DNA from: Eledone cirrhosa
Lineage: Eukaryota
Length of the DNA: 64,000 bases
Direction: 5' to 3'
Assembly: GCA_964016885.1 (NCBI GenBank)
Contig: OZ024751.1
Span: forward strand, 21,824,001-21,888,000
Positions 3,504 through 39,393 of this stretch are shown here, piece after piece. Position numbers and translations under genes: made by a program. Numbering within the stretch: the stretch's first letter is position 1; every line of letters begins with the position of its first letter. The notes under the pieces are model-generated. The model ran no database searches. It was not told the origin of the DNA and worked only from the letters and a program-made list of their open reading frames with translations.

Positions 3504-3570
<67 letters not shown>

Positions 3571-6618: not shown

Positions 6619-6919
6619 ATCTATGAAATACACTGCATATATGTTTGTATCAATTTTGAAAATAATACAAAATTTAAATAAAATACATATTTTCGTTATT
6701 AACCCTTTGCTACCAACTGGACCAAAACTATGAAACAAAACCATTCATTTTAAAGGTTTCTATTTAAACTAAAATCTTCAAACATAATTTTAATATGACA
6801 ACCATATCTTAAGTTACTATCTTTGTAATGAAATAATTAATAATTTTAATAAATCCTTCAAAATGTTTCATTAATCAGTTGACATACAGTATATTTCATT
6901 AGAAATACATTCTGATACT

Positions 6920-7435
6920 AGTAATACCACTTTATAGAGTCTACTGTCTGAATGTTGTGGTAACACCAGCCTTACCAATTTACAATGTGTAGTGTGCATT
7001 TTGTGGCACTAGCATTACCACTTTACAGGGTGTACTGGGTGCAGTTTATCATGGCACCAGCAGTATCTCTTTACAGAGTAGACTGAATCAGTTTATCATG
7101 ACACCAGAAGTGTCTCTTTTATTGTGGCACCAACACTACAACTTTATAGAATGGACTAAGTGCATTTTATCACAGCACCAGTACTATCACTTTACATAGT
7201 AGACTGAGTGTAGTTTATCATGGCAGCAGCATTACCTCTTTACAGCATGGAATGAGTGCAGTTTATCACAGCACCAGCAGTATCTCTTTAGAGAGTGGGC
7301 TGGGTGCAGTTTATTATGACACAAACACTACTTCTTTACAGAGTGGATTGAGTGCAGTTTATCATTAAACCAGCACTATCTCTTTACAGAGTGTACTGAG
7401 TGCAGTTTATCATGGCACAAGCACTACCAGTTTAA
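6920..7435. repeat. Degenerate ~47-bp minisatellite (about 10 units)
   Basis: Repeating tttatcatggcaccagcactatctctttacagagtggactgagtgcag. Confidence 0.85.
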
Positions 7436-8184
7436 AGAATATATAAAAGGCATAAGAGAAACTTCCTGAGAAAATCAGTTTAGCTAAATGTTCCGCTGCC
7501 TTCTGCCATGTTTCCCAAACATGACAAGATAATTGTTAGTTTTAACATGATTTCTGCAAATATGAATTCTTCAGGGTCACTTTGACAAAATAATATTTGC
7601 ATCGTGCCAAACACGCTATTTCAGTAATATCAGCATATTAATGTATGTTTTTGATACTAAATATAAATCAGCATCAACTAAAAACAAACTCAGTTATCTT
7701 ATCTCATATAACAACTTCCCCTCCCCCAGCTCTGTTTCTCTCTCCCTCTTTCCATCCTTCCTTAGTTGTCTAACTGACTCATTAGAGGAAGTATAGAATA
7801 GAGGTTCAGTTAGAAAGAGATTAAAAAAGGTAGATAGCAGAACAGAATTCGTGAGAAACAGACAGGGTGTGGGTATGTTCATATATATATATATATTAGT
7901 GTGTCTGTGTATGGGAGTAATGGATGTCTGTATAGGTAACTATCTGAGAGTATGTTTATGTATATGACTTGTATGGATGTATGTGTGTGTGTGAGAAAGA
8001 CAGTAAGTGTAAGTTTCTATTTATGGCTGTGTGAGAACATGTTTGATTGTATGGAGGAGTGTGTCTGTGTGTGGGAGTAATGTATGCCTGCATATAGTTG
8101 TGTGTGTGTATATAACAAGACAGAAATTGTTACCAAAAGGGAGGGAACCAACCTGAACAGTTTATGCTTAAGTAGTTGGCACAA

Positions 8185-8470
8185 TACAGACACAGTCAAC
8201 ACATTAGATGTATTGAGACAATGGCGACACAGTCTATAGTGTTTTATGTTCTATAGAATTGGAGACAAAATACAGATACAGTCTGTAGTGTTCTCTAGAT
8301 GTAGAGACAGTCTATAGTGATTTGTTCTATAGGAGAGACAGTCTAGTGTTTTATTTTTCTGTAGAAGTGGAGACACAATAGAGTCTATAATGTTTGTTCT
8401 ATAGATGTAGAGACACAATACAGACACAGTCTATAGTGTTTTGTGTTCTATACAAGGAGAGACACAGTGT
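8185..8470. repeat. Degenerate ~40-50-bp tandem repeat
   Basis: Repeating gagacacaatacagacacagtctatagtgttt...ttctataga. Confidence 0.75.
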
Positions 8471-9289
8471 ATGATATTTTATAGTATTGATCTTCTTTTG
8501 AAGTTTCATAAAATAAATACAGAAAATTTCCCAGCACATACTGTGTAATTATATATATTAAACATATTTATAAATGTCTAAGAAGTTTGTTTGGAACTAC
8601 ATGGTTCCATGTTTGGCTTCACTGTTCAGCACCTTGGGCTTGTGTCTTATACTGTAACCACAGGCTGACCAATGCCTGGAGAGAGAAGAGTGAAATTTGG
8701 CAGATGGAAGCTTAGTAAAAGCCCATAGTATAACAGAAGCAACAACAATAAACCTTTTAAAGCCATCTTTTCTGCTGAAGCTGAGTTTTGTTAGCTTTTG
8801 TTTATGTAAGGAAAGGTTTCATACAATCTTTTACAGCTGGTTGCCTGTTTCTGGCAGCAACACTTTCAGTTACCTATTGCTATATGCAGGGATATGGTAT
8901 ACCTATTCTAAACTGGATTATATATAAAAAGAAAAAAAAAAACAATGAAGTTTCATTTACATTTTTTTTTATTGAGTATTGACCTGTTACGCACGTTTTG
9001 CAGATGATTGGCTCAAGGTCACTTATGGACACGACTCCAGCATTGATCTGCTTGTCAGACTGGTGATTTAACAAAAAATGTGTTTATGTAGGCATGCCCA
9101 CTTATGTGCGTAAATGTGTGTTTATGCCTGTGTATATTCACTGAATCATCTACACTATACTATATATATATATATATATATAAAATTGTGTGTGTTTATA
9201 CTTGTACTCTCTACTCTATTGTGAGTGTGAATACTCACTTATATATGTGTGTGTATCATCATCATTTTCATACCCTCTTTTCCTGCTAC

Positions 9290-9321
<32 letters not shown>

Positions 9322-10264
9322 TCACCTACATACATACATAAATGTATGTGTGCATGGTTGTCTTCAAGGTACAGCTTATTTATATCCTGTAGTTTAGTGA
9401 TTCAATGAATGAAGACCAGTGGAAATAAGTATTATACTTCAAACAAAATAGAGATGACATCAGGAAGGGTATCTGGTCATAGAATACTGCCTCAAAATGT
9501 CTCATCCAACCCATGCCAGAATGGAAAGTGAGACATAAAAATGCAAGATCATCTGTGAAAGTTACTTGCAGCAGACTAGCACCTCTTCCAGGGGTAGTTT
9601 TATCTTAATCATTTACTTGATGCCTATATAAAGCCAGAGTCAAACACTGGAGCACTGGTTCGCAACTCCCTTACCACTTCACATAAGATACATTTATCAC
9701 AAAACTATTTCTAAATGACATATACTCGATATTTAATAATATTATAACTTCTGCCACGAGTTGCGACCAGTAGATAGTACCACCAATGAAAAGACCAATG
9801 GAAACATTGTTTCTTTGATCTGATTTGAGTAGTTCCACCCTACTCGGTACACAAATAAGGTCTGGGATCTTGTTGATCAATAAATAATAAAAATGTTTTT
9901 GTCACATTTTCCAGGTTGAAATTTACGTAGAAATCCATGTTTATGTTTGTTAACATAGCAACTAACAATTACTTGAGTGTGTGAGTTTATTTGTTTGTGA
10001 TTATAAGAGCATATAAGCATTTTTTTCTCTCTTCCCTGACATGCCACTCTTTCTCTTTCTTTCTTTCTTTCTCTCTACCTGACACTCAGTGTAACTCCTA
10101 CTTGAAACCATACTTTAATCTGCTCTCTCTCTCTCGGCTATGTTGTAAAACAAGTCTTTGTACATAGAAAGTTCCCCTTCTGAGGCACAAGCCCAGGTAA
10201 GGTGGTTTTGTGGAAGACCAGATGTTACCCATGTATACCTATATAGATTAGATAATGAAGATTT

Positions 10265-10357
10265 TGGCACAAAATAATTAATAAACACCAAAGAAAAGTA
10301 TTGAACTTTATTAAGTATTCTTAAATATATTTTATGTAAAATTAACAATCTTTATAC
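10265..10357 (-). terminator. Candidate mini terminal exon (V*) with poly(A) signal
   Basis: cagttttttttctcag|GTA TAA, AATAAA at 10312-10307, then tacttttctttggtgtttattaattattttgtg. Confidence 0.5.
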
Positions 10358-12052
10358 CTGAGAAAAAAAACTGAGTGAAATTGAAATTAAAAAATCCCCA
10401 AAAAACTCTTCGGGTAACAGACAGAAACTAAAAAAAAAAAAAACTTTCCAGAAAAAAATGTTGTTATGGCAAATATTTATTTCAGCAGCAGTTGCTTTTA
10501 AAAGAAACAGCCATGTTAAATATATTGAGATAAAAATAATACATCTCTTAGAACTGAATCATAATTTTAACCCTTATGATGCCAACCCACTTATATATAG
10601 CCATTTCTGGTTCTATGATACATATCTACCCATTTTAAAGAGCTCCTCCTTTAAATTTACTCTTAAACCACATTAATAAGACATCCTTCAGAAGTACAAA
10701 ACAACATAATGACTGCATCACATTAAAAAATTAATCTTTATGCTAATGTAAATTTTTATAATGATCTATCTGTCCACTAGTAAAGACACTAAATATTTGA
10801 ATTTAACAAACCTGTTATTTAAGATATTTTCTGCTAAATTATTACATGATGTTAAAAGTTAAAATCTTCCAGTATAATTTTATATAAGAGCCATATGTTA
10901 AGTTACTATCTCAGTAATGAAATACATTTTTAATTTTAGTAAATCCTTCTAAATTCTTTATTAATTACTTAAAATAGAGTGTATTTCATTAGAAATTCAG
11001 CCATAAAAGGGATAAGTTAGCTTCTTTAAAAACTTGTATGCAAATTACTAATGTTTGATGCTAACCTGCTTGAAACCCTGGTCCTATGATACAAAACTGG
11101 TTATATTTATGTGAATACAAAAGTGATTATATTTATCTGAAAACCTTCCATCATAATCTAATGTAAGACTCATTGTTGAGTTATGCTCTAAATAGCATGA
11201 GAAAGTTACATCACTAAATCTCTTCAAAATGATTTGAAAATCATAAAGAGTGTCTTTCATTAAAGACATTGTAATGAAAGAAGACATTTTTATATTTTCC
11301 TTTTAATCCTTTTGATACCAAACCCGACAAAAATCAACTCTAGTTCTATGAGGCAAAACCTCTCATTTTAAAGGGTTCCTAAATAAATTAAAAGCTTCCA
11401 ACACAAATTTTATTAATGGAAATAATGAATAATTTTAGTAAATCCTTCAATAATTAATTGAAATAGAGAATATTAAAAATATACATTATTTCTAATACCA
11501 TAAATATGGTAAAGTGTTACTCCTGTAATTCATAGGACCCCTTTTGTCATGAATGACCATTGATTTGCACATAGAAGGTTCCCCTCTGAGGCACAAAACC
11601 AGCAGTCAACCATGCATACCAGTCTCCCCCCCACTTCATGCCACCAATGTTGTCCAAAGAGAAAGCGAAGGCCAACCGATACAGCTTGACACCAGTTATG
11701 TCACAACTCATGTCTTCCACTGAGTGAACTGGAACGTGAAAGAAAGTGTCTGACTCATGGATACAATGCACCACTCAGTTCAAGAATCGAACTCACAAAC
11801 TCATGATTGTGAACACAAAATACTAATCACTAAACCATGTGTCTTTATATATCTATTTGTAATTAAATTTTTAATAAGTAAACAGCCTATGTTTCAATTA
11901 ATTTTGAATATAATCAAGATTTTGGAGGGGAGGAGAAATGAAGTATCTGTTAACTTTTATATGCTGGTACATATTATGTTAGTGTAAATAGATATTAACT
12001 GATAAAATTCATACCATGAGATTATTTTGGTCTTGATTTTTAATTAAAATAT

Positions 12053-12239
12053 TTGTTTCTACTTTTGGTACAAGGCCAGCAATTACTCAGTACATTACTG
12101 GTACTTTATTTTATCGACCCCGTAAGGATGAAAGGCAAAGTTAACCTCGGTGGGATTTGAACTCAGAATGGCAAGGGCCGTAACTCTATGCGTCAAAGCA
12201 TGGCGTCCGACCCTCTACCGACGCTGCCAATCCACCGCC
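12053..12239 (-). mobile_element. tRNA-derived SINE (gcctttcatcc...ggtcgataaaataaagtaccag family)
   Basis: Near-identical copy at 17013-17194; partial copies at 1143-1280, 29163-29250 and 39922-40012. Confidence 0.8.
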
Positions 12240-13886
12240 CTTTTTTTAATTAAAATATTAACACTTTAGCATGGATGGGTTGTTATTGTATTTCTAATAA
12301 AATAATACTCTGTACAAAAATTATTATTTCATTAAGATGGCATTTGTAACATAACAAAAGGTTCCTATATCAAATATGTTGGAAGATTTTAATTTAAATA
12401 TGAAACAATTTACTATGTGTGGGTTGGTATTAAAAGTGTTAAAGAAATTTTGTTGAAACAGAATAAATTTAATCAAAAGCCTGGAACAAAACTGTGTATC
12501 CAAAACTTAGCAGCAGCAGCAGTAGTAAAGTCTGCTTACAGCTCTTCTTTGTCAACAAAGACCATTTTCAACTAATTTAGATAGCAATTATATCATCTCA
12601 ACTAATTTAGATAACATTAAATGGTTTTAATTACAGGCAACTTCATCAATTGTTATACATTTTGAAAGTGTAATCTTACACCACAAACAAGATTTGGAGA
12701 AGAGTGAGTTTTTATCATTAACAGATATTTTTTCTCTTCTCTTTTATCTGCATTGTTAGAAAAACTTTAGCAAGAGTGGCTTTCTTGATTAAGCATAATA
12801 AATGATAGTTAACCCTTTTGACACCAACCCAGCTAACACTGGTTCTGGTGCTATGAAATGAAACCACCCATTTAAAATTAATGTCATCCACCATAATTTT
12901 AATATAAGAACCATATGAAAAGTTACTATCTTAGTGATGGTGCCACAAAAAAAAAAAAAAAAGCACCCAGCCCACCCTATAAGGTGGTTGTACTGGTCCC
13001 AAGACAAAAAGCACCTAGTCCGACCTGAATTTGGTAGTGCTAGTGCCATGAAAAAAGTACCCAGTTCACCCTATAAGGTGGTTGGCAGTAGGAAGGACAA
13101 CCAGCTATAGAAAATCAATTGAAAAAATGGAATGTATGAGCAAGATATGGTTATGTGATCTGTCTGGCCTTATAATGTGACAGCTCATCTAACCCATGGA
13201 AGCATGGAAAACAGACATTAGTGATGATGAATATAGAGTCTGTATATTATAGTCATCAGTTAAACTATCTCAAGGACAACCATCAATGGATATTGTTCTT
13301 TTTAATCATTCACAAGCGTAGAGGCTCATCAAGTTAAGGCTTATCCTGGTTTCTGTGGCATTAAGCAAGTAAGAGTACAAGATTCCCACAAGTCCATCAC
13401 AGAGTAAAGACAGTCCTAAACTCGGAGGCTCATAGGGTCAATGCTTATCCCACTTTCCATGGCATGAAGTTACAGTGTACAAGACTACCCCTGGATAGGG
13501 CACCAGTCCATCGCAACGTTAAACCCCCAGTTATTGCTATAACCCATTTTCAGTTGAGTCTACTGGAGCAACGTGAAATGAAGTGTTTTGCTTAAGAACA
13601 CAACACACAACCCAGAATTCATGTTATAATCATAAGTCCAACACTCTTACCACAAGACCACATGCCTACATATAAGATATGGTATGTATAATATAGACAA
13701 CGAACTGGCAGAGCTATTAGAATGTCAGGTAGAATGCTTTGTTCTCAGTTTAAATCTGACTGAAGTCAACTTTGCCTTTCATCCTTTCGAGGTTGATAAA
13801 CAAATTATTAGTGCAGTATTAGAGTCAATTCTTCCTCTAGAAGAAATTGGCTGTGGAACTAGAGGGATGGGCTCCTCCTGGTTTAA

Positions 13887-14102
13887 CCCTTTAGTTACCA
13901 ACACGGCCAAAACTGGCTTTGGTTCTATGAAATAAAGCCACCCATTTTAAATAAAAAATCTTCCAACATAATTTTATAAGAACCTTACATTAAGTTACTA
14001 TCTTAGTAATGAAATAATTAATAATTTTAGTAAATCCCTCAAAAATGTTCATTAGTTAATTAAAATAGAGGGTGTTTCATTAGAAATACAGTCATGAAAA
14101 GG
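13887..14102 (+). mobile_element. piggyBac-type MITE family B
   Basis: TTAA|CCCTTTAGTTACCAA...CATGAAAAGG|TTAA; decayed relatives near 6700, 10575, 10860, 11305, 12810, 24410 and 35385. Confidence 0.75.
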
Positions 14103-14259
14103 TTAAAATGCCCTCACGACTTCATCAGAAGTTATGGGTCCCATTACAGACATATATGTGTATTATAGTTGTCAGTTAGAACAATTGTTGGGTGTTTTCA
14201 TGATAGGGGACCCTAGTTATATCAAGAAAAGCAACCAAAAAAGCACACCACCTAGTTAA

Positions 14260-14630
14260 GGAATTGAACCCATGATTTTCTGATCACAAGTCCTACACCT
14301 TAACCACTAGGCCATGTACCTTCACTAACCAAGTTGTTATGGTGAGAAATCCTACACCTTAACCACTAGGCCTTCACCAAACCAAGCTATAATTATGAGT
14401 ACAACACCATAACCACTAGGCCACGTGACTTCACAAACCAAGTTGTTATAATCATAAGTCCTACACTTTGACCATTTAGGCCACGTGACTTCACAAACCA
14501 AATTGTAATGATCAGGAGTCCTACACTTTACTACCAGTCCACATGCCTTCACTAATCAAGCTGTTATCATAAGTCCTACACCTTGACCACTAGGCTACGT
14601 GACTTCACTAACCAAATTGTAATGATCATA
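14260..14630 (-). repeat. Tandem array of SINE tRNA-head 5' halves (~59-bp unit, about 6 copies)
   Basis: Repeating cctacaccttaaccactaggccacgtgacttcactaaccaag. Confidence 0.85.
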
Positions 14631-14951
14631 AGATACCTTACTGAATACTTTTACACAGCAATAACAGTCTAACACCAGTAACCTTTTGATAGTCATTAAA
14701 ACAATCCAGTCATATTTTCTTTGCAATACTTATCTTGTAAGATTTCCTGTTCTTTGATTTAAAGTTATCTTACATTAGCAGTTAAATATCACCGAACAGT
14801 CATATAATAACATAATACATTTTTATGCTATCTAACCATTCTATCTTTCTCTTTTCCTCTTTTTTCTTTAGACATCAAAAATAATTAAAATTTGTTTTCC
14901 GTTCAGGACATGTAGAGTAGATTTGCATGGTCTCCTAGCCATAATTCTTCT

Positions 14952-15056
14952 CACGTGTAGCTTCTTAGACAAGCAAAGCCAAAACATGTGCACCTTCTAG
15001 GACAAGCAAAGGCAAAACACGTGCACCTTCTAGGACAAGCAAAGGCAAAACACGTG
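14952..15056. repeat. 32-bp tandem repeat, 3 copies
   Basis: cacgtgcaccttctaggacaagcaaaggcaaaa. Confidence 0.85.
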
Positions 15057-16328
15057 GTGGTAGCTGTATTCTTCCTCACAATTTGTGAACAGATTTGACA
15101 ACTGTCATTGTCCAGTTTTAGCCATGAGATGCATTCAAATAGGTTGGAAAATCACAATCAAAATTAGGCAACAAAAATAATTATTTCCAGTTTCTGTGGA
15201 ATTAAAATCTAGATGAAACCAGCTGTTTGTTCTTGCCAGCTACCGTATTTCTCATGAAAGACATCTTATGATTTTCAATTAATTTTGAAAATGACTAATA
15301 ATTTTTGATTATTAAGCTGGTATTTTACATAAAATTAAAATGTTTTTTGAAAAACATTTTAGTTGTGTCTAGGACATGAGACCCCTTGTAGTGCTGGGAA
15401 TCTACACAATAAAAGCACCCAACACACAGTTAAGTGGTTGGGGATAGGGAGGGCATCCAGCTATAGAAAGCTTGCCAAACAAGGAATTAGGAGGATCCTT
15501 CAGTTTGTGCAAAAGACACAACTTCTCTCCACTCGATAGAATGTATGACTATATAAAATGGAAAATCACTCGGCCTGTCTGGGAGAGCAATAGCCCTACT
15601 TCAGTACTGACTTGGTCTATGTAGACATATCCAACCCTTGCTAGCAGGGAAATTGGATGTTAAATGATAATTTTAAAATAAACAGTCTTGTATCAGGAGC
15701 AGTTTCAGGGTATCAAAAAGGTTAATTAGATGAAATCAGCCAAGTTACTGTATAGAGTGCCAAGACCTTTTGTTAGAGGAATTAAATCTAGCACAGGACC
15801 CAACAAATCTTTCATCACTTTTACAGTAATTCTATTTCTTATAAACCTTTTTTTTAAACAAAAACAACTATCAATTCACCACCAACCAGAAAATGAGATT
15901 GTAAAAGAGTAAATAAAAGAAAAAGAGAGGTCTTAATCCGTATGGTGAGCAAATGGGGTGTGTTGTTCTTGAGCAAGACACTTTATTTCACATTGCTCTA
16001 GTTCACTCAGCTATAGAAATGAGTTGCAACATCATTGGTGCCATGCTGCATCAGCATTTCTTTTCCCCTTGGACATCGGTGGCAAAGAGAGGGGAGGCTG
16101 GTAATGGATGGGCAACTGTTGGTCTTCCACAAAAATCATGCCCAGAGGGGAATTTTGTAGGTGCATTCATGATCGAAGGAGGTCTCTACTTCTCTCTCTC
16201 TCTATATATATATATATATAGATAGATATATAAAGACCCCTTCAGTCACAAATGATCGTGAGATTTGCACCTAGAAAGTTCCCCTCTAGGGCACAAGCCT
16301 GTGTAAGGTTATATATATATATATATTA

Positions 16329-16664
16329 GGAGGCACATGGCTTAGTGGTTAGAGCATTGGCCTTGCAATCGAAAGGTTGTGAGTTCAATTCTCAGACCGG
16401 GTGATGTGTTGTTTCCTTGAGCAAGACACTTTATTTCACATTGCTCCAGTTTACTCGGCTGTAGAAATGGGATTGAGAGGGACTGGGGTCCATATCATTC
16501 CACTGCAAAGTGGTCGTGGAGGTGCCACGGCAAAAAAGCACCCAGCACTCACTGTAAATGAGGTTGGTGTTAGGAAGGGCATCCAACTGTAGAAATCAAG
16601 CCAGCATCAGTTCCCGTCCCACCCTTGCAAGCAGGGAAAAAGCGGACGTAAAATGAAATGATGA
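16329..16664 (+). mobile_element. tRNA-derived SINE with RTE-like tail
   Basis: A box tggcttagtggttagagc, B box gagttcaattc, cttgagcaagacac core, tail ending ggacgtaaaatgaaatgatgat. Confidence 0.85.
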
Positions 16665-17559
16665 TATATATACACACACAACTGATTTACTAATGTAATG
16701 TATCCCTATTCTTCTGCCTAGTTCTGTTATATATTTGTAAGATATTAAAATATGTTGTCTCCATAACATTATCTTTTACGAGTGTGCTCTGAACTTTTCA
16801 TTGAGCGGTTAATATATGTATACCATCATCATTACTGTTATACATCTTTTTTCCATACTTGCACAGGTTAGATAAGTTGTCATGTTATGAGGCTAGACAG
16901 ATCAAACAACTGTGTTGCTCATACATTCCATTCTGGTATTGTTTCTGTGACTAGATGTCCTTCCTATTGCCAACTACTGAGTAACAGGTAAGGGTTAATT
17001 ATAATTAGATAACTGTTTCTACTTTCGGCACAAGGCCAGCAATTATCCAGTACATTACTGGTACTTTATTTTATCGACCATGTAAGGATGAAAGGCAAAG
17101 TGAACCTTGGCGGGATTTGAACTCAGACCGTAAAGGGACGTAACTATGCTGGAAAGCATGGCGTCCGACTCTCTACCGATACTGCCAATCCACCGGTTAT
17201 AATTAGATAATAAAACAAAACCAGTATACCTAGAATAATAATCTATTAATATTAACAAATAAAGAGTATTTATAGCAGTGGCGGTTAATATAATCTAGGA
17301 GCTAATCCTACTCTATCTGATAGGATTATCTCTTAGCTGACTACTTTGAAGACACCTTATAGTACTTGTTCTTGTGTTGGCATTCAGCCAGGATGAGCTA
17401 AGCTGGTGTGCTTGGATTCAACCTGTAAATCCACAGCATCTTGAACAAAGACCATATGTGCATGGTGACAGTAATTATAGAAGTTTGATGCAGATATTGT
17501 CAGCTAGTTATCATTCCAATGGCAAACACTAAATGTGCAAGGACTAGATATTAGCTGAA

Positions 17560-17764
17560 CCCTTTAGCATTTACATAACTCTATATTTACTATTATATTT
17601 TTATAGTAAAGACTTTACCTCACATAATATCGAATCTACAAGATTTTGATATTATTTATTTTGAGAACAATACCTTATCAGTATGAGCGGCCGGTTACAG
17701 CCAGTTTGAACAGAAAGAGGTGAGAGAATTCTGGCCAGATATGGCCAGTTTAAATGCTAAAGGG
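17560..17764 (+). mobile_element. piggyBac-type MITE family A
   Basis: CCCTTTAGCATT...AATGCTAAAGGG|TTAA termini; seven similar copies in the window. Confidence 0.85.
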
Positions 17765-18159
17765 TTAAGATACAATTTTTATTGAAAATACCGAGTTTTT
17801 ATTAGTTCATGCCTAAATTTTTCACAGGAGAGAGACAGAGGAATATTTCTTTTGCTATAGTAGTCATCATCAGCAAATAATAACTGTAGTGTTTTGATTT
17901 TTAATAAAGAAATAATTAACTTAAATTATTATAATTAGATTCGATTGTCCACCAACAAAGATAAATTAGTTCTGTCGCCCTCCTGTGAAAATTTCATGGA
18001 TTAACCAATCAAAACTCAGCTTTTCCGATAGTGCTGTCTAACCTATTTCAATTACTCCATGTTGAAACTATATACTGGTGGTTCACACCAGATTTATTCT
18101 CAGACTGACATGTCAAGAAAATAGAATGCAGATACAATTGTGCATCTCTACTTCATTAA

Positions 18160-18380
18160 CCCTTTAGCATTTAAACCGGCCATATCTGGCCAGAATTCTC
18201 TAACCTCACTTCTTTCTGTTCAAACTGGTCGTAACCAGCCGTTCATACTGACGTTAAGGTATTGTTCTCAAAATAAATAACATCAAAATCTTGTAGATTT
18301 GATATTATGTGAGATGAAGCCTTTACCACAAAAGTACAATAGTATATATATATATATAGAGTAATGTAAATGCTAAAGGG
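18160..18380 (-). mobile_element. piggyBac-type MITE family A (inverted relative to the 17560 copy)
   Basis: TTAA|CCCTTTAGCATT...AATGCTAAAGGG|TTAA. Confidence 0.88.
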
Positions 18381-19131
18381 TTAAGAGATATATCATCATC
18401 ACCCCCACACTACCACTTAACATCTATTTTCCCATGCTTGACATGGCCGAGAAGAAAGATCAAATAATAAGCACCACCACAATAGTCCATTGAAACTTTA
18501 TTTGTGGCTGGCTGGGCAGAAGGATGGAGTTGGGTGGAGGACAGGCACAAACAAAAATGACCTGGTTCAACACAACTTTTGTTTGGTACATAAGACCAAA
18601 AGATGTTTATCAGCAATTGAAAAACACACACAGTAATTTATCAAGAGAAAGCATGTAGTGTTATGTGTGTATACATTATACACATACAATAATTTATCAA
18701 GAGAAAGCGTGTATGTATGTGTATATATATATATATACACTCACACACACACACAGTATCAGTAGATAATGCACAAATAAACAGTTACATGAGACGAAGA
18801 GACAGCTGCACCTGTACCTCATCAGCCATCTTACTTGTGTGCAATTTCACACATTATGGTGGCTTTTTAATAAGATGCATGCGAAATTGCACACCAGCAT
18901 GGTGGCTAACGAGATAGAGATGCAGTTAGATGTCTTATGTAATTGATTTTCTGATTTTCTATATATATATAAAGTGTGCTAGCAACCGATGTGTCCAATA
19001 AAGATATATCTGTAGACATATAGTCTGTAACCGAGACTGCACCAATGTATATATAAATATACACTTTCAATATCTAGGTTTGTAAACATACCAGAAAATA
19101 CAAATTTCCCTGGAAATTGAAAAGTTGATAA

Positions 19132-19180
19132 ACACCTTTAATCAATTTTCAGGCCTAATTGGGCCCTCATCAGAAAGTGT
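19132..19180 (-). ncRNA. Minimal type I hammerhead ribozyme, sense to CSTF3 intron 3
   Basis: Minus strand reads acacttt CTGATGA gggcc caatta ggcct GAAA attgat TA aaggtgt: intact core, 7-bp stem I, 5-bp stem II, near-palindromic stem III. Confidence 0.75.
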
Positions 19181-20959
19181 GTATATCATCCAAACAACCA
19201 CAAGGAAAAGTCTTTTAGTGGGTTTACATACCATTGATCTTATTATTATTATTATTATTATATGTGAAAAAGTGTCCTGCATGGCTAAGATCATACAATG
19301 AATCATAACAGTGAGCAAAGACAACAGAAAAACAGATGAAACATAGTACAGCCCTTTCTCTTCAGTTGACCACTGGAGGTCTTTATGGTTTTGATGCTTT
19401 ATAGCCGATACCACTAGCTCCAGTGCACATGGGGACAGTAACAAATGGACACAAGACAAGATGATCCACACACACACATCCAACTTATGCCAGCATGGAG
19501 AGACATGTAATATTATAAACAAAAAGACACACACACACACACATAGCTTGCATCCTCCAAATATCATCAATTAACAATACACATTACATTAGTCTACATA
19601 TCTAAAAACAGCGAAAAGATTTGAATTTCCTGTTACATACATACACACTGTCGTGCCTGTGCATACAGCACATACATATATAGAGTAACCACATATACTA
19701 AACTGTCATATACACCCATAACATGAGCACAAGTACACTTACATATGTTTTTGGATCTCCATTGGTTCCAAGGATGAGTGTTACAGTTGTTCAACCAATG
19801 GAGCTATCTGCCAGTGAAATTAACATGCAAGTGGCTGAGCATTCGATGGATACGTGTACCCTCAAAGTAGTTTGTCAGGTAGATTTGTATGACAGATTGG
19901 CAAAGCCAGATGAGTGGACTGGAACAACGTGAAGTACAAGTTCTTACTCAAGGACACAGCACAACACCAGAAATCAAACTCCTGACCTCACGATTATGAG
20001 CCATTCACCTTAACCACTAAGCCACGCACCTTAACACATCACATGTACACACATTAACTCACTCGTGTTTTCACAAGTCCTTCGAACCATCTTGATCCAA
20101 TCTTACTCAAGAACACAACACAACAACAGAAATCAAACTCCCGACCTTATGGTTGTGAGTCAAACACGCCAACCACTAAGCCACACACTTTAACACACCA
20201 TATGTACATATTAACTCACTCGCATATTTATAAATCCTTGGAACTGTTAATCCAAACAAACAAAAAATGTTGCTACTGACTGGTTTGAATTTTGTTTAAA
20301 AAAAGAAAAAATTACATGTATCTCAAATAACATGCATGCACACATACATGTACACACACACACAAATGCATACACATACAAATTTCAAATAATTCTACGT
20401 GAATGTTCAAATATTGACATTACAAGATTAACTAGATTCCACACCACCATCATTAAGATTCCTGAATTATTTTTTTTTATCACACTACATCCTGGCTTAA
20501 TATCACAAAATATTTCAATATTTTTAAAATATAACACTACAAGGTGAAATCTGTTTCCCCACCACCATCAATCACCATTCTGGTTTAATATCACAAAATA
20601 TTTCAGTATTTTTTTTTTTATATTATGACACTACAAGGTTAAATGTTTCACCACTACCACATTTCCCATGACTTCCACATTTTTTCCCTTTTCTTTTTTT
20701 TGCCTTTTGTAAAAGTACTACATCCTGGTTTAATATAATATCACAGAATATTTTAAATGTTAAATATAATAGAAAAGGAACACAGCAGCAACAACATGGA
20801 AAGAAAAGAAAAAGAATTGGATGGAAATTTAAGAAGGTCTTTGATAGAATTTTTTTTAAAGGGCAAAAGGAGAAAAAAAAAGAAGACATCTGACTGAAAT
20901 GAAAGTTTACTAAACAGTTGCTACAATGTGCAGCAGATATAGGCACGGATAAATAAATG

Positions 20960-21135
20960 AAACAATTCAACGACTAGAGAAATAATGACAAAAAAATGTC
21001 TTTTCTAGTGAAGAACTGTTTATTGGCAGAAAATAGTTCATTTAGTTCAAATACTGCAATTTAAAAAGAACATATATACATATATACACAGACAAACATT
21101 ATATATATATTATATTATATATATAGCGTAAATAC
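20960..21135 (-). terminator. Candidate mini terminal exon (VFTLYI*) with poly(A) signal
   Basis: tgtcatttttttcag|GTATTT acceptor, TAA at 21117-21115, two TGTA motifs, AATAAA at 21024-21019, U-rich downstream element. Confidence 0.5.
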
Positions 21136-22458
21136 CTGAAAAAAATGACATGAAAATACAAACAAACAAAAAACATTATGAAGAACATTTTTTTTCGCTA
21201 CAGATGATTCAACACAAATATTTCTTTTTCTTTCTTTTTTTTTTCTATACCAACAATATAACATCTCACACACAGACTGACAGACAAGACTTAACTTTCA
21301 CATCTCTACCATTCACACAATCAAACATGTTCTGTTCAATGGCAAACTGACTATTTAGTATTTTCTATTGAAAATACTAAAAAGAAAGACAGAAAATTAA
21401 ATTATTATATTTCAACATTTAATTGACATGAAATAAATTTAAATTTAAAATATAAGTGGAAACAGAGACAATTATAACTTGTGCTATTGCACTATTTTAA
21501 TATTCATATTCTTTTTTTTTTTTAAGACAAGATAATCAACTGAAGTCACTTGTCATTGAACAAACTTGACTTTCACAACACCCAAAACATCTTACTCACA
21601 AGCTAAATCTATAATTTATATTTACTATTTTATTTTACATTGTTTTCAATTAACAGTGAAGATTAGCAAAACCTAAAGGATTAGATATTTATATATATAT
21701 ACACACACACACATATATTTCTATAATCAGCCTGTTTGGTGGTGGTACTGAAACTAATCCAACAACTGGTGTCAGATAGTAATTAAGAATTATAAAAACT
21801 ACATTTTGGCACATCATACAACATATACTAAATATCCCCATTCCATAACTTTCTAATTATAACTATACTGATAAATATGAACCAAGATTTCTTCAGTCTT
21901 CAGTAATATCATAATTCTTAATGTACACCACATGAAACTGCATTAGCAAGACAGTCTTAAAAAGTGAAAAACAACACTGACTGCACTACTCTAATACTGA
22001 AAATGTTTACAACAATCTGTCCAGTAGCAAAAATAATTCTTATTTACAGCTCACACGTACACAAATTTAGCTTGCCTACTACAAGGTTGAATCTCATAGA
22101 GGTTTCTTGGCTGTTTTAATAATAGGGGCTCCAATAGAGAAACCATTAAGATACAGATTTATAGATATTTTCTGCTAAATCATAACAGGATGTTGAAGTA
22201 ACTGAAAACACTATCAAATGTTTTTTGTGGCTGTATCGAAGACACCCGTGACTGATCAAATAAGCTATTTTCACTGAGTGTTTGATTTTATAAATTAGGT
22301 GGGAGTGAGGACATTACACCCAATACCCCTAGTTTTGCAATACAAAACAGCTTGTTTTGAACTGTTTATATTTATCTAAAAACCTTATATCAAAATTTTA
22401 TGTAAGAACCTTCAAGTTATGTTCCAAACACAAATCTTAATGAAAAAGATAACTACAC

Positions 22459-22740
22459 GGAGGTGCATGGCCTAGTAGTAAGAGTGTTGGACTTATGATC
22501 ATAACGTTATGGGTTTGATTCCTGGACTGGGTTGTGTTCTTGAGCAAAACGGTTCATTTCACATTGCACCCAGTACACTCATCTGAAAATGAGTAACAGC
22601 AATAGCTAGGGGATTAACCCTGCAATGGACTGATGTCCTGTCCAGGGGGAAGTCAGGTATTTTCAGTCACTTCAAGCTACGGAAACTGAGATAAGCACCG
22701 GTCTGATGAGACCCTAGGCTTGAGACATACTTTAGACTTA
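22459..22740 (+). mobile_element. tRNA-derived SINE (second tail type)
   Basis: tggcctagtagtaagagt / ggtttgattcc boxes, shared core, tail ttaaccctgcaatggactga...actttagactta; reverse copy at about 13380-13670. Confidence 0.8.
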
Positions 22741-23469
22741 GTTACATGACTAAATTTCTCTGAATTCTTCATTAATTTTCAAAATTATTAGAAAAATCAG
22801 TATTTTTCATTAGAAATATAACAAAAGACTAAATTTTCTAAAAAATTTGTTTTACAGAAACAATGAAAGTAAATGAAAGCTAGAGGAACAGCCTGCCATA
22901 TTCTGAGCTAAATTTACCCTCTAGTCTATCTCAGTAAGCACTTGGGATAAAATTAGAACATATCTTTTAATTCACATTATATTCTCTTCCTGGAAGATTG
23001 CCCACATATGTTTCTTTTATTGAAATACATCTCCTGAGAATATGAAATGAATTAAAAGAACTGAGGAATGAGGATGAGAGAGAAGGAGCGAGAGAAAGGA
23101 AAACATATATATATAGAGAGAGGGAGGGGGAACTAAATCAAACTAATGAATGGCATTCTATATGCCTCGCCACCACCAAACTACTATTTGATAACGCGTG
23201 CATGTCATAAATAATAAAAGTAGCTACAAATTAATTTATGTTCTTTATTTTTATAAGCCATTTCTTCAACTTTTAAAGCAAAGAACTAGTTCTCGTTTTC
23301 TATATTTCTGCATATCACTATTACATTTTTTTAAAATCTTTTTTCAGTTTTTTTTCTTATATTATTTATATATAAATATATATATTTGTTATCTAAACTG
23401 AAATGGCCCCAATATTTTCCAAAAGTGTCTTCACATACTATATATATTCAAATGTATATTAGCTTAAAA

Positions 23470-23632
23470 TTAACTACTTCAACACAGGCTTTTGACTATG
23501 AAAAATAGTCAAACAAGTGGGATATATAAGTGCCTAGAGACAGAAAATAGTAAACAGCATTGCAAGTGGAACACACATGCTCAACTGGTTCGACTATTTT
23601 TCCTAGTCAAAAGCCTGCATTGAAGCAGTTAA
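23470..23632. repeat. Inverted repeat / small MITE with TTAA ends
   Basis: About 50-bp arms: ttaactacttcaacacaggcttttgactatgaaaaatagtc / gactatttttcctagtcaaaagcctgcattgaagcagttaa. Confidence 0.8.
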
Positions 23633-23886
23633 CTAAATTAACATTTGAAATTCATGATTCAATTTTCACTCCTTAAAAAATACGATTATATATATATATA
23701 TTATAGTTGTACAATATCCTATAAAAGAACATTATACTACTGCAATAAACGTCACATGCATACTCATACCAAGTCTCACTCACACTAACACTCATATTCA
23801 TATACAACAAACTACAACATACATGCATGCATGAAGGAAGGAAGAAAACACAGTCTAAAATAGCATTGAAGACAAACTCGAAAAAA

Positions 23887-23985
23887 TCAAAACGCAAAAA
23901 GCCTGATGTCAGACTGTTTTATGATTTCAATGTACAGTGGGTTCCCCTCCATCTGGCCTACTGGAGAGGAACTGCCTTTGGAAGG
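23887..23985 (-). CDS. Candidate alternative terminal exon in CSTF3 intron 3 (PSKGSSPVGQMEGNPLYIEIIKQSDIRLFAF*)
   Basis: ttttaatttttaataccag acceptor, phase-0 frame of 32 codons plus TGA, followed by non-repetitive U/GU-rich sequence and AATAAA at 23249-23244. Confidence 0.35.
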   Translation of the reverse strand, partial: PSKGSSSPVGQMEGNPLYIEIIKQSDIRLFAF

Positions 23986-25421
23986 CTGGTATTAAAAATT
24001 AAAAGTGCTGATATCTCTACATTAGCAAACAAAAGTACCAGGACAATTGGAGACTTAAAAAAAAAATTGTAATAAAACTTTCCCCACCTCACCATTAAGT
24101 GGATTTATACGGGACAAAAATCAATCTTTATGTTAAATAAATACCATGTAACTATAAACGTAGTCACATTAAAAATATACAATGAAAAATATTCATTTAC
24201 ATTTATAACGCTAACAAACAGAAAATCATCAGAAATTTATTAATATGCCTCACACTGATACAAGGCCAAAAGAAAAATATAAGAATATATCCATGACCGG
24301 TACTTATTTTACTGACTCCTAACACCAATCATAGGCAAAGTTGATATCAATGACATTTAGCCTCAAGACATTATACTATATAACTATCCTTAAAGACATC
24401 CATTTTAACCTTTTTGGTAGTAACCTTCATGAAACTGCCCTTGATTCTGTAATACAAAACTGCCAATTTTCAAAGGGTTTATATTTTAATCTAAGCAAGC
24501 AGCCTTTCAACATAATATATCTGAAAGAACATTTTGTTATGTTCTAAACACTAGCTTTCAAATGGAGAAGTTAGATATTTTATTAAATCCTTCAGTATTC
24601 TTCATTATTTAAAAAATTAACTGAAACACCTTCACAGCATATTTGATTATGAATCATCATCATCATCATTATTATATATTTGTTTTCCAAGCTGATATAG
24701 GTTGGACTAGAAATATGGGTTAAAGAAATTTACTTTAGATAATTACGTTATTTTCTCTAGTATGCGGGCTTTTTTTTTTATAACATTTAATTTCCTTCTG
24801 AACTAATCCAACAGATGCGCATTTATCATATCAAGATCAATATTTGTTGGTTGAGAAGTGAATGATTAAACACACCTCGTTAACAACATCTAATAAGCCA
24901 CTCAAAATGCTTTCAATTTTTTTCTTTTCCTTCCTATATCTATACAGCTAACCAAAGAAGAATTTTCGAAACAAATATAACAAAAATTTTCAAAAAAGAA
25001 TTATCAAAATGAGAAATATTTCTTAAAAATTTTTTTTCTGTTAAAGTAAAGTCATATTGATTTGTAACCAAATAGATAAGTAGCTACTAAATCAAATTTT
25101 AAAAATAAAATAGATACTACATTTCTCTAGTTATTTTTCAACTTACACTAAATTTTAAAGTATGAATCCAAGTGTTTTGCTCTATTAATTTTATTTGCCT
25201 TTACCCCATTATAAAAATTTATATATTTTATCTTGTTTTCTCCCTGCGTATTCAAGGAGGGAAGGCCACAGACCATGACCCTTTTTCCTGGCCTCTGAGA
25301 CTGGTAGGAAGGAGAGGAAAGTATCCTCAAAATGGAGACCTGGTCCAAATGCTTGCAACAAACTCTACTAAAGGCACCCAAGGGCTAGGTGGTGGTGGTG
25401 TTAAACTGGCCAATGGTTTAA

Positions 25422-25614
25422 CCCTTTAGCATTCACATTACTCTATATATACTATTGTATGTTCTTTAAAGGCTTTACCTCACATAATATCGAATCTATG
25501 AGATTTTGAAAGTATTTATTTTGAGAACAATACCTTAACATCAGTTTGAGCGACCAGTTACAGCTAGTTTCAACAGAAAGAGGTAGAGAATTCTGGCCGG
25601 TTTGAACGTTAAAT
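25422..25614 (+). mobile_element. piggyBac-type MITE family A, right TIR truncated
   Basis: Left TTAA|CCCTTTAGCATT and family body. Confidence 0.8.
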
Positions 25615-26119
25615 AAAATAGCCAATAAAATATACATAAAGCCTAACATTTAAGAGGCATTATATATATATATATATATATATATAAAAACTAATGATAA
25701 AGTGGATGAAGTATTAAATTAGCCAAGTCATATGTTCATATTGGCTGCAAACATTTTGTTGAGTCAGTATACAGAACAATCCTATATACCATGAGAGACA
25801 GCTAGCTAGTGGAAATAAGTACCAGGATCTTATTAAAAAGCTCCCTGAAATAGATTGGCATTCTATATAGAAGGGGGCAGAATGATTTGAACTGCATCTG
25901 CTTAAGGACACTTGTGATTTTCGGAGGAGGGGAAAAAATTATGGCATTATATAAGATGCTTGTTATAAAATCTAAACTGAAGGGAAATCTTTACCCCACT
26001 AAGTTAGGAATTAGAAGTTAAAATTCTGAGTTCTGTACCAAGATGTTAGAAAGAGAAAATAACAACCACAACATATACTGTTTTTATTAGTTTTTGTGTT
26101 TTCTCTCTTCAAAATCTTG

Positions 26120-26210
26120 CTTTCAACACAAACAAAAACAACAGGCTAACAGGAATATAACTGCAGGGGTATTATTTAATATTTTTATGAAAGACATGGG
26201 AATTTTTATT

Positions 26211-26245
<35 letters not shown>

Positions 26246-26388
26246 TGAACTGTATATTTTCTCTTTCATCACAATAATGGAGGGGTGGAGGGGAGGTCTA
26301 AATGATATAAAGATATGTCTCGGGTGTTGTCGGGTACATTTGATAGCCATTGTAGAGATACGCTCCTATATAACAAAGATTTATAAAC
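26120..26388 (-). terminator. Exon 3 read-through extension and proximal intronic poly(A) site
   Basis: Frame stays open for 39 codons past the weak donor to TGA at 26269; then TGTA, AATAAA (26210-26205), ATTAAA (26180-26175) and GU-rich ctgttgtttttgtttgtgttg (about 26143-26123). Confidence 0.6.
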
Positions 26389-26484
26389 CTCTTGCTCAAT
26401 GTAACTCTTCCAATAGCGTCCAGCATTAGGAAACTGCGTTACAAGCCTCTCATAGGTATTTCGGGCATCTCCGATCATTTTCAT
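26389..26484 (-). CDS. CSTF3: CstF-77 coding exon 3 ([32 protein letters not shown]), first HAT repeat
   Basis: ttttcag acceptor, 96 nt, weak donor GAG|gtttat; resembles human [32 protein letters not shown]; inside ORF 26269..26508. Confidence 0.96.
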
Positions 26485-27981
26485 CTGAAAATATAAAATA
26501 GAATCCATGACACCTTAATAAACTTTCTTAAAACAACAACAAAAAAAAAATAAAAAAAAAGGGAAAGAAAAAAATTCAAAGAATAATGTCATATGTGGAT
26601 AAAAGTTAAGGATTATATTTTTGAAATTTATAGCTGATCCCTATACAGCTTTATCCTCCTATGAGGTTGTTCAGATGTTTTAATGATAGAGGTATATGAC
26701 CTGACCCCGAGTCCAAAATTAACTACTAAGCCACGCACCTTCGTGGATTATATCATTACATATAGAAATCTATATTTTCATAATGAAATATAGGTTGAAT
26801 AAAGTATACATCTGTGTATATGTATGTGGGGTAAGCAGACCAAGGAAATCTATTCAAGAATGTATATCAACAAGTATAGTCAATGACTTTTATGGCTGAA
26901 ATGTTTTCTAGTGACAAACAATATCACAATTAGATTTATGTTCCAATTGATTTTTTCGCAAAATATTTTGTGTGTGTTTTAGAATAGATAGACTGCATCC
27001 CTTTTGTATAGAAAGGAGTTGCCACTAGGTAGAGTATCTGGCTGTAAAACATTGGCTCAAAAAGAACTTCTTGAGTATGAAACCTATTGTAGGGGCTTGA
27101 AAGACTAAAACCCCTGCTTTAAAAAGGAAAATGGCCACAAAATACTTTGTTGTACATTGTCAGCTAATCTCCCGATAACATCTGTCTTAAGCACCAAGTA
27201 GATGCATTGTGAAACAATAAGAGGAATTGAATCATAATTATCTTGATCTTGCTTACATACAACGTTACTGCAGCTCTCACATATGAAGGTTTATTTTCTT
27301 CTTTTCATAGATAGCTTCAGGTTTGTTCTAGATGTATCTACATTCAGATCTGAGTATTTAAGGTCTTATATATATATATATATATGAAGGTGGGTTTAGC
27401 TAGCCCCCAACAAAGTTGCACCTCATAGGTATCTCATGTGTATGTAAATTAATTTATTAGAAGAATCCAGTGAGATTTCCCTCATTTAAAAAAAACACAA
27501 AAAAAACAGAAGTTCAATCTGGTACCAGTTTTGATATTTAAAAAAAAAAGTTGTGTTTTATTTTTTGTTGTTTCACATGCATGCATAATAAAAACAGCAG
27601 CTTGCTTTGACAAATGTTTTGCTTGATTTATTGACAACTTTCTTCTGTGCCATATGTTGGTAACCTTCATAGGGAAAATAAAATCTATGGTGATTATAAA
27701 CATTTCTTTGGTTCAATAATGTTTAATAGAATATATAAGTATAAATATATAGTGGATAGTAAGATATTAAATTACCAGTTAATGTGTGACATAATGAGTT
27801 CACATTTGTCACTGCTACAGATGTTTCATTGTATTTCTAGGTTAACACACACATTTACAATTCTAAGTCTCAATTTTCATGATTGATCTACCTGTGGAGA
27901 ATACCACCAAATCTTTGCTATAAGATTGATTGGTATCCTATTCAAAGGAATAGATATTTAGTTCTCAATATTTTACCTTAA

Positions 27982-28177
27982 CCCTTTAGTTACCAACCTC
28001 GCTATGGTTCTACGAAATAAAACCACCCATTTTAAATTTTCCAACATAATTTTATATAAGAATTTACATTAAGTTACTATCTTAGTAATGAAATAATAAT
28101 TTTGGTAAATCCCTCAATATTCTTCATTAGTTAATTAAAATAAGGTGTATTTCATTTGAAATTTGGTCATGAAAGGG
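27982..28177 (+). mobile_element. piggyBac-type MITE family B
   Basis: TTAA|CCCTTTAGTTACCAA...CATGAAAGGG|TTAA, similar to the 13887 copy. Confidence 0.8.
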
Positions 28178-30036
28178 TTAATCAAGAATCCAAAACTAAA
28201 ACATCTATTTTATGATTTGCAAAAGTAGCTAATTGGAGAGAAAAAAAAAATGTACATTTAAATTTGTTTTATGGGTGCAGGGCATGGTTGTGTGGTTAAG
28301 AAGTTTGCTTTGCAACCAGGTGGTCTTGTGTTCAATCCCACAGCATGGCACCTTGGGCTGCTTATACCATAGTCTTGAGCCAACCAACTCCTTGCGATCA
28401 CGTTTGTATGCGTGCCTTAACATCAACATGGTTTAAAAGCAAGTGGCACCATTTGTTTATGCCCCAATGCTAACCAGTTTGACGAAATATGAAAAGTATG
28501 TACCATACTTAAAAATAAAGACATTTGTTAAGTTATGCTCCAAATACCATACAAATAGTTATATTACTAAATCTTTTTTCCAGTAAGTTGAATACTCAGC
28601 AAGCACAGATAAAGTTTTACCTACTACTTTGTTTAATAGTAAAGCAAATATTTCATGAATTTACATAGGATGAATTGGAAAATAAATTTCTTTAACTCTT
28701 AACAATCTGTACCACATGAAATGATATTACCATGACATTCTTGATAAGTACAAAATAGAATTATGACTGCATCAAATTAAAAAAGTCTTTACTCTAATAC
28801 TGCGATTTTTTACAATGATCCGTCCACTAGTAAAGATACTATAAACATTTAAATTAACAAAGTCAGTTTTAGATATTTTCTACTAAATTGTCACAGGATG
28901 TAAAGAGTTAAAGAAAAATTATAATTCAGAGCAAAGAGTCTTGAATTTAATTTTCATAACCAATAATAGCAATCATAGCACAGAGAAATAATTCATGATA
29001 AACCCTTCGAAATCCTGCTGCCATAACTCATCCAATCTATTCTGATATAGTTGGTTGACAGCAAAGAAGAGTATTTTGCATCAAATAATGCAAGGCAAGC
29101 TTATTTATTGTGTAGATCACATCCTTGTACAATCAACATGAACTGGATTGTACATAGTAATAATTGTTTCTACTTTTGGCACAAGGCCAGCATTACCCAG
29201 TATTAATGGTACTTTATTTTATCGACCCCGTAAGGATGAAAGGCAAAGTTAATAGTAATAATAATACTTTCTTGGCCACAAGGAAATAATAATAGTATGA
29301 AACATTCCAACCTTCTAGTTAGTTAGTCCCTCATGAAACATCAAGTCACAATAGATTTCTACCACCCTGCACAGTTGTAATCCTTGTCACAAGCCAACTC
29401 CCAGGCTAGGCCCACACCTGCCAGGTCTACCTCCACAGCCCTCAACTAGGCCTGAAGTCTGCCTCACCCCATGTGCCCTATTCTGGTTTCCCCCCCTAGG
29501 TACTGATATTACCTCCCTACTTATTGCTTTCGGGGGACACAGTTGGCTCCCGGCAGGGGTGAGCCTCATAAGTTGGAATGACTATTTCAACACGTCTCCC
29601 TCACTATTTCTCCATTCTGGTCTAAGATCAATGACAAAAACAAAACACTAGTCACACTCAGGTGAAATAAAAAAGAAAAAAGAACTTTACAGCTCATACG
29701 TATGCAGGTTTATCTGGCTTCCTACAAGGTTGCATCTAATAGGAGGTTTCTTGAGTGTCATCACAGACCAAGTCAGTACTCAAACGGAGCTACAGAGCTG
29801 AGTCGGAGTCTTGCATATTGCTTACATACATTCCAGCACTCTACCAAGTGCTCGGACAGGTTGGTGACCTACATCTCACATTAGGAAGGTTGTTGTCTCT
29901 TTGACACAACTGGAGATTCATCCCAACCCACTGTTTGGCATTTCACATTACATTCAACAAAGATTAAGAAATAGAAATAAAAACAACAGACAAGACAAGG
30001 AAGAAGCTGCAGTTTATTTCATAGAGAGTGACTCAC

Positions 30037-39338: not shown

Positions 39339-39393
<55 letters not shown>

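Follow-up and report, generated by a model that had tools for sequence, protein, structure and literature searches.

The 46-kb intron 3 of octopus CstF-77 as a probable attenuator of the vertebrate CSTF3 type

The closest described systems are the poly(A) autoregulation of vertebrate CSTF3 in intron 3 (Luo et al. 2013, PMC3708835), of Drosophila su(f) at an intronic site, and of PCF11 in intron 1 (PMC6428223, PMC7471841). Luo et al. present the loop as a vertebrate-wide feature that arose by convergence in the fly, where the site is non-homologous, and report no such site for C. elegans (PMC3708835). They give for human CSTF3 21 exons, an intron 3 of 33.2 kb (43%) and an exon-3 donor at the 0.7th percentile, which reads GAG/GTTACT in a primer of Table S1. 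In human reporters, a longer distance from donor to site lowers the use of the site.

Gene structure and the exon-3 donor

The gene in the window (the whole 64,000-nt stretch of Eledone cirrhosa DNA analysed) is octopus CstF-77. It lies on the minus strand, as do all features given below by window position, and has 21 exons, with a frame of 710 aa unbroken across exons 2 to 21. The transcript would start near 41960. The coding part of exon 1 (54 codons; 41084..41245) encodes an N-terminus that aligns with O. bimaculoides XP_014768041.1. It is followed by intron 1 (10,945 nt; 30139..41083), exon 2 (34 codons; 30037..30138), intron 2 (3,552 nt; 26485..30036) and exon 3 (32 codons; 26389..26484), a CstF-77 match whose end corresponds to human residue 75. 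Exon 4 was located outside the window, at G000:C11:21804236, and intron 3 is therefore 46,152 nt long, with positions 1..26388 inside the window, and does not stop around 8.9 kb. This intron makes up 60% of the gene, most of it beyond the region covered by the initial annotation, while introns 4 to 20 measure 0.26 to 2.05 kb each. It occupies the position of human CSTF3 intron 3, after codon 75 and in phase 0, and the exon-4 boundary is identical in both species. The octopus intronic sequence could not be aligned to human.

Consensus donors of exons 1 and 2 and a weak donor of exon 3 had been claimed, and all were present: GTAAGT at 41083, GTGAGT at 30036 and GAG/GTTTAT at 26388 (26383..26391). 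When ranked within the gene's own 20 donors, the exon-3 donor was the lowest, with the fewest U1 matches (5/9) and the weakest U1 duplex energy (-4.2 kcal/mol; next weakest -4.5). It was also the only one with T at +3.

A GTT donor was found at exon 3 in 16 of the 20 invertebrate loci holding this exon, 15 of these 16 coming from a single clade, and at exon 2 in none of 21. The remaining four loci carried GTC or GTA, one of these donors being strong. Across six loci of the GTT clade, alignments over the opening 430 nt of intron 3 reached z of at least 4 in 13-14 of 15 pairs, as compared with 4/15 pairs for intron 2 and 3/15 for intron 3 beyond +480. The conserved stretch closes with an A-rich and then a GU-rich block. 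Conservation of intron-3 sequence was thus seen near the donor.

Transcripts and proteins reading into intron 3

Past the donor, the frame continues for 39 codons to an in-frame stop ending at 26269 (26269..26388). The first 22 of these codons are conserved in other octopods, whose read-through frames stop after them. Proteins in which exons 1, 2 and 3 are spliced together and the C-terminus comes from intron 3 were found in Logan clusters of octopods (29+4 and 13 contigs), in O. bimaculoides XP_014768041.1, in oyster XP_052720768.1 (21 contigs), and in Tegillarca and Arion; exon 1-3 products of this kind are present in three octopod protein clusters and in other molluscs. The spliced gastropod-like contig L068 reads through GAG/GTT and carries AATAAA 62 nt before its end. 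Of 125 short proteins sorted by type, read-through at intron 3 accounted for 79, continuation to exon 4 for 35 and other types for 11; the named ones may be gene predictions split at the long intron. Arthropod- and nematode-like rows were excluded from the evidence because they are possibly genomic frames without intron 2. An Argopecten bivalve model ends in intron 4, not in intron 3, and a few records show read-through proteins at intron 4 also. The shared position at human residue 75, the weak donor and the read-through transcripts bear out the claim that this intron is equivalent to vertebrate CSTF3 intron 3.

Run X4, a single run of unrecorded kind seen as contigs, was judged to be RNA from the behaviour of these contigs. 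One contig departs from the genome at 26487, exactly where the exon 2-3 junction is expected (shared CAG), and a word share of 0.56 fits the loss of intron 2, which is apparently missing from the run. From exon 3 to 21005, contig depth was 45.9, 39.7, 37.7, 35-37 and 22.9, and beyond 21005 at most about 10. The read-through RNA passes nine AATAAA before the one at 21024, and the last X4 contig stops 14 nt after the latter, at 21005, in single-copy DNA. DNA contigs, unlike this one, continue past 21005 (chance of such a stop about 0.04). No poly(A) tail was seen in the X4 contigs. The run hints weakly at a read-through exon of 5.4 kb ending near 21005, the contig end as such being rated less than a weak hint of an end. 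X4 further differs from the DNA runs by three A>G changes at 23490-23492, which fit editing. They were not counted as editing because X4 is another sample.

Such read-through RNA could be unfinished pre-mRNA without a regulated intronic end, if intron 3 were merely spliced slowly and thus removed late or retained. Late splicing is predicted by the weak donor together with the 46-kb length, contigs cannot show ends, and the read-through proteins at intron 4 point the same way. However, X4 depth stays level across 5 kb and drops at the hexamer by more than half to three-quarters, with no taper over 46 kb; in another clade, intron conservation closes with the A-rich/GU-rich block, itself conserved; and the end of L068 lies close behind its AATAAA. 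Slow splicing as the whole explanation is considered unlikely.

Candidate poly(A) sites and cassettes

The initial annotation had placed a read-through poly(A) site at about 26.2 kb and cassettes of acceptor, stop and AATAAA at about 23.9, 21.1 and 10.3 kb, with a possible further one at 9.0 kb. At the donor-proximal site (26040..26210), the hexamers (AATAAA 26210, ATTAAA 26180, AATAAA 26088), the U/GU tracts and the in-frame stop were present, but run X4 reads flat through it, with little drop in contig depth, as it does through the 23.9-kb site. The latter (23760..23985) is a single-copy stretch with a modest acceptor, an 11-bp hairpin, CATAAA and a U/GU tract, and gave no sign of use as an exon or end. 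AATAAA is absent from the 685 nt after 23985, where only CATAAA at 23923 occurs, upstream of the in-frame stop, and the cassette claimed here was not confirmed. At 20950..21160, the strong acceptor at 21135 scores above the median of real acceptors and is followed by GTATTT; the stretch also contains two UGUA, a stop at 21115, AATAAA 21024 and a U-rich tract. The parts of this cassette were thus found as claimed, but not its use as a spliced exon, an X4 contig being unbroken over 21135. The hexamer may instead be real in closing a read-through exon that is left unspliced, with a candidate main end near 21005. The motifs claimed at 10.3 kb were confirmed (10250..10430; acceptors 10427 and 10357, a stop, AATAAA 10312 and a U-rich tract), though the 10357 acceptor is mediocre. 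At 8900..8973, AATAAA 8973 and a T-run resemble background; the best acceptor within 500 nt of this hexamer scores 2.6, a value exceeded by 18 of the 20 real acceptors, which speaks against a cassette at 9.0 kb.

The signals at 23.9, 21.0 and 10.3 kb are not taken to stem from repeats, because their hexamer regions are single-copy. Rfam returned nothing at the candidate sites (one weak tRNA-like match in 84 kb, none in 10 related loci), and for this reason the hairpin at 23.9 kb was no longer considered a snoRNA or miRNA. Folding z-scores at six sites ranged from +0.2 to -2.0. Display of CATAAA in a loop of the 23.9-kb hairpin was ruled out, the motif being paired in the fold.

The frequency of such cassettes was compared with 280 kb of matched intragenic DNA, for which 30 of 46 control loci were left after a composition filter. 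With a T-rich tract taken as at least 45% T, AATAAA plus tract occurred 2.17 times per 10 kb in intron 3 and 2.15 times in the controls; the values were 1.95 and 0.93 at a threshold of 50%, and 3.68 and 4.61 at 40%. Full cassettes in the 46 kb numbered 2-8 (binomial p = 0.02, 0.37, 0.12, 0.16 and 0.06) under five definitions with thresholds set after the sites had been seen. The strict definition gave 2 in 46 kb and none in the 280 kb of controls read in the sense direction. Local shuffles, which break up T-tracts, yielded fewer strict cassettes, and 0/40 reached 2. Cassette density was not robustly above background (p 0.02-0.37).

Serial, graded exits through the proximal site and spliced terminal cassettes at 23985, 21135 and 10357, as first proposed, would agree with this strict count (p=0.02, one of five definitions) and with the spliced alternative endings after exon 3 in other animals (P0032, with a stop, and P0027). 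Nevertheless, p was 0.06-0.37 under the other four definitions, two of the four cassettes lack a stated part (AATAAA after 23985, a good acceptor at 9.0 kb), and a cassette peptide was present in 0/3 octopod clusters. Single X4 contigs pass unbroken over both 23985 and 21135, and no joint from exon 3 to either of them was among the 15 listed of 351 in X4. A multiplication of spliced cassettes is regarded as improbable.

The sites at 21135 and 10357 are both acceptors followed by GTA and might serve as AG/GT points for stepwise, recursive removal of the 46-kb intron. GTATTT works as a donor in intron 16, and AG/GT points number 2 in 46 kb as compared with 3 in 280 kb of sense controls. Against this, the motif does not clearly exceed the controls, antisense controls giving 5 and the antisense strand of intron 3 giving 1, neither site has a GTAAGT donor, RNA is deeper over the 5 kb upstream of 21135 than over the DNA downstream, and no such junction was among the joints listed. 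Recursive splicing is thought very unlikely.

Proposed attenuation and described systems

The best explanation, held with fair confidence, is that spliced exon 1-3 transcripts of octopus CstF-77 read past the gene's weakest donor into the 46-kb, vertebrate-position intron 3, where they likely undergo cleavage and polyadenylation, the main site probably lying 5.4 kb from the donor, near 21.0 kb. This would form a negative-feedback attenuator of the vertebrate CSTF3 type. U1 would bind the GAG/GTT donor poorly and exon 4 would be transcribed only 46 kb later, so that cleavage would compete with splicing, as is established in human. When CstF activity is high, the intronic end would be used more, and full-length protein would give way to a truncated frame of 159 aa with a 3' UTR of about 5.3 kb. 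Feedback would follow from this arrangement in octopus.

The findings are best read as a vertebrate intron-3 attenuator that lophotrochozoans have as well, and the agreement in position, donor and intron size suggests that it descends from the protostome-deuterostome ancestor. Control of the gene's own level by early cleavage would then be far older than assumed. More tentatively, the attenuator may date from the last such common ancestor, with the fly having moved it and nematodes having lost it. In octopus it might then discard most transcripts by way of a repeat-rich read-through exon of 5.4 kb in which the proximal signals are bypassed, and the choice among several unspliced ends, perhaps with RNA editing, might tune global 3'-end processing between tissues. 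A mollusc gene whose third intron is vertebrate-like in position, in size and in its weak GTT donor, and the read-through products of cephalopods, bivalves and gastropods, point to a bilaterian age of this control of global 3'-end processing.

PCF11 resembles octopus CstF-77 in encoding a 3'-end factor and in having a weak donor and an intronic site that senses cleavage activity, although gene and intron are different (PMC6428223, PMC7471841). Drosophila su(f) shares with octopus the gene and, presumably, the logic. According to PMC3708835, its flanking sequence and exon structure are not conserved with vertebrates and it has no in-frame stop; octopus departs from that layout, with its in-frame stop at 26269 and its vertebrate position. 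Compared with vertebrate CSTF3, the octopus intron measures 46 kb and its apparent main end lies about 5.4 kb in, past nine AATAAA, with a feedback that is presumed, whereas a single PCR fragment was enough to clone both the donor and the site of human (PMC3708835). Vertebrate CSTF3 agrees with octopus in the gene, the intron position and phase, the 21 exons, the large introns 1 and 3, the weak GAG/GTT donor and the in-frame stop of the composite terminal exon, an exon that is putative in octopus.

The CstF-77 gene and its exon-3 donor

One gene was matched by the Suf family in the window (G000:C11:21824001-21888000, in a genome of 3.0 Gb), on the minus strand. Exon 3 (26484-26389, minus strand), recognized by its CstF-77 match, ends at human residue 75, and exon 4 was located at C11:21804236 by adding the stretches adjoining the window. 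The model comprises 21 exons, exons 2-21 forming a 710-aa frame without a break, and the protein is near-identical to O. bimaculoides XP_014768041.1, which identifies it as that of an octopus. Introns 1 and 2 of this minus-strand model measure 10,945 nt and 3,552 nt, and introns 4-20 measure 264-2,053 nt. Intron 3 extends over 46,152 nt, or 60% of the gene, 26.4 kb of which was visible in the initial annotation.

The exon-3 donor, GAG|GTTTAT, had been described as weak, and it proved to be at the bottom of the gene's 20 donors, both in matches to the generally known U1 motif (5/9) and in U1 duplex energy (-4.2 kcal/mol). It is the only one with T at +3. The donor of intron 8 (window coordinate -25171 on G000:C11) is of the GC-AG type, CAG|GCAAGT. 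AATAAA occurs 10 and 18 nt past the strong intron-1 and intron-2 donors (window 30026, 30018 region), each with a T-rich tract.

A GCGCATGCGC-like promoter motif, which we take to be of the NRF-1 type, is situated at ~41985-41996 (minus strand), about 25 nt upstream of the start of record 32, a contig of sequencing run X4, if exon 1 is unspliced. Immediately upstream of exon 1 lie pieces of a non-LTR retroelement (42824-45282, minus strand), which gave matches to RT and to a PHD finger. An intact 914-aa frame at 52816-55560 (plus strand) weakly matches reverse transcriptase, has a C-terminus presumably resembling a GIY-YIG nuclease, and looks like a Penelope-like retroelement. Intron 3 contains tandem arrays (48-nt and ~58-nt) at 7004-7440 and 14283-14632, and a weak antisense tRNA-like match of 31 bits, probably SINE-derived, at 3319-3376 (plus strand) of L009, a stretch with part of this intron.

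Read-through and proposed cassettes in intron 3

Four runs of one study, none recorded as RNA, cover the stretch, and their contigs were compared over 20700-26530. Runs X1-X3 behaved like DNA. X4, with 88 Mb of contigs, had a depth of 35-46 over this stretch. Record 32 departs from the genome at 26487, the exact split point of spliced exon 2 (shared CAG), and the X4 word share was 0.56 versus 0.89-0.92, consistent with a missing intron 2; we therefore infer that X4 is an RNA run. Record 32 spans the exon-3 donor without a break. Contig depth was 45.9 at first, 39.7 at 25698-26208, 37.7 in a single contig spanning 23985 (22521-25444), then 35-37, falling to 22.9 at 21005-21676 in a contig spanning 21135, and about 10 at most beyond 21005. 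The last X4 contig ends at 21005 in single-copy DNA, 14 nt past AATAAA (21024-21019), unlike the DNA-run contigs, which go on; the chance of a random end so placed is ~0.04. Based on one run, as contigs with no tail seen and with 15 of 351 joints shown, this hints weakly that in the X4 sample most exon 1-3 RNA reads 5.4 kb into intron 3, past proximal signals, and, equally weakly, that it terminates around 21.0 kb with no splice to any cassette. Late splicing of intron 3 without a regulated end, to be weighed against the same contig end and depths, is unlikely, and recursive splicing of the intron is the most improbable reading considered. Three adjacent A>G differences in X4 (23490-23492, sense strand), at the base of a small hairpin and absent from the DNA runs, are possibly A-to-I editing or an allele.

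The initial annotation had proposed serial cassettes of acceptor, stop, AATAAA and U/GU tract. Those at 21135 and 10357/10427 match this description; at 23985 AATAAA is missing and the stop is preceded by CATAAA alone, and the cassette at 9.0 kb lacks a good acceptor. An acceptor matrix built from the gene's 20 introns was scanned over intron 3 and over controls, 30 of 46 myosin-gene loci passing a composition filter (280 kb). The density of hexamer plus tract was 2.17 per 10 kb versus 2.15 in controls (T>=45%), above controls at T>=50% and below at T>=40%. For full cassettes, five post-hoc definitions gave p = 0.02, 0.37, 0.12, 0.16 and 0.06; any slight excess would rest on two sites.

A protein search with exon 3 plus the read-through frame (all seven candidates listed) gave one spliced exon 1-2-3 protein with an intron-3 ending, in 29 + 4 contigs of the Logan collection. 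Among the best 14 of 31 candidates of a second search were another octopod cluster (13 contigs, spliced exons 1-3, intron-3 ending) and read-through in O. bimaculoides, oyster (21 contigs), Tegillarca and Arion, several named short records being predicted genes, possibly cut in two by a long intron. The Argopecten short model ends in intron 4, counter to this pattern. All three octopod clusters among the matches listed stop after 22 intronic codons, and none of the three contains the peptides expected from splicing to 23985, 21135 or 10357. The Eledone cirrhosa genome has CGA at that stop (26320-26322, minus strand), by allele, species change or assembly error, and the frame extends to 39 codons. 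With cassette frequency not clearly above controls, no cassette peptides in these clusters and X4 contigs spanning 23985 and 21135, the proposed expansion was not upheld and a series of spliced cassettes seems quite unlikely, if less so than recursive splicing; the 21.0-kb site is better explained as a read-through end.

Exon 3 and intron 3 in other animals

Exon 3 was present in 20 of 23 metagenome loci of other animals, with a GAG|GTT donor in 16, GTC in one and GTA in three; GTT occurred in none of 21 exon-2 donors. Fifteen of the 16 belong to one clade, so that the 16 together represent two further lineages, not sixteen. In this clade intron 2 is 141-769 nt, and exon 4 was absent from the sequence 3' of exon 3 (up to 3,668 nt). 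Intron 3 is 3.0 kb in the sole locus containing both exons. Among six loci picked to cover its subgroups (15 pairs), 13-14 pairs align over intron 3 as far as +430, compared with four for intron 2 and three past +480. The conserved part (L069, L071, L075, L076, L079, L087) includes a block near +190 and closes with an A-rich then GU-rich block at about +330-400 that has no canonical hexamer and that might serve this clade as a non-canonical poly(A) site. Rfam gave no match for these blocks.

Counting against read-through, spliced alternative endings were seen in one oyster member and in protein record P0027; past exon 3, such endings also mark record P0032 and loci L077 and L084, the P0027 type not being found in the intron of L084. 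Stronger GTA donors at the loci closest to P0027 hint, from sequence, at a skipped-exon form of the attenuator. In a third search (best 120 of 221 hits), arthropod- and nematode-like rows were left out because genomic frames produce the same pattern.

Comparison with the vertebrate attenuator

The proposal that the octopus keeps a loop in the intron equivalent to the vertebrate one stood as to position, size, weak donor, read-through products and near-donor conservation, but not as to multiplied spliced cassettes. By extension from human work, internal cleavage in intron 3 would compete with splicing, and transcripts would be lost under strong 3'-end activity or scarce U1. The short RNA is predicted to code for 159 aa and to carry a ~5.3-kb 3' UTR. 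Octopus CstF-77 likely has an intron-3 attenuator of the CSTF3 type, here outside the vertebrates and with putative feedback. Full-text searches of openly accessible papers listed no account of such a site in a mollusc or other lophotrochozoan. According to Luo et al., the CSTF3 site is vertebrate-conserved, the fly site convergent and none is present in C. elegans (PMC3708835). In the human work, intronic cleavage is set by donor strength and intron size, with feedback from the CstF-77 level. Human CSTF3 has 21 exons, an intron 3 of 33.2 kb (43% of the gene) and an intron-3 donor in the 0.7th percentile of strength (PMC3708835). The human exon-3 donor reads GAG|GTTACT, per a primer in Table S1 (PMC3708835), so that the GAG|GTT start is common to human and octopus.
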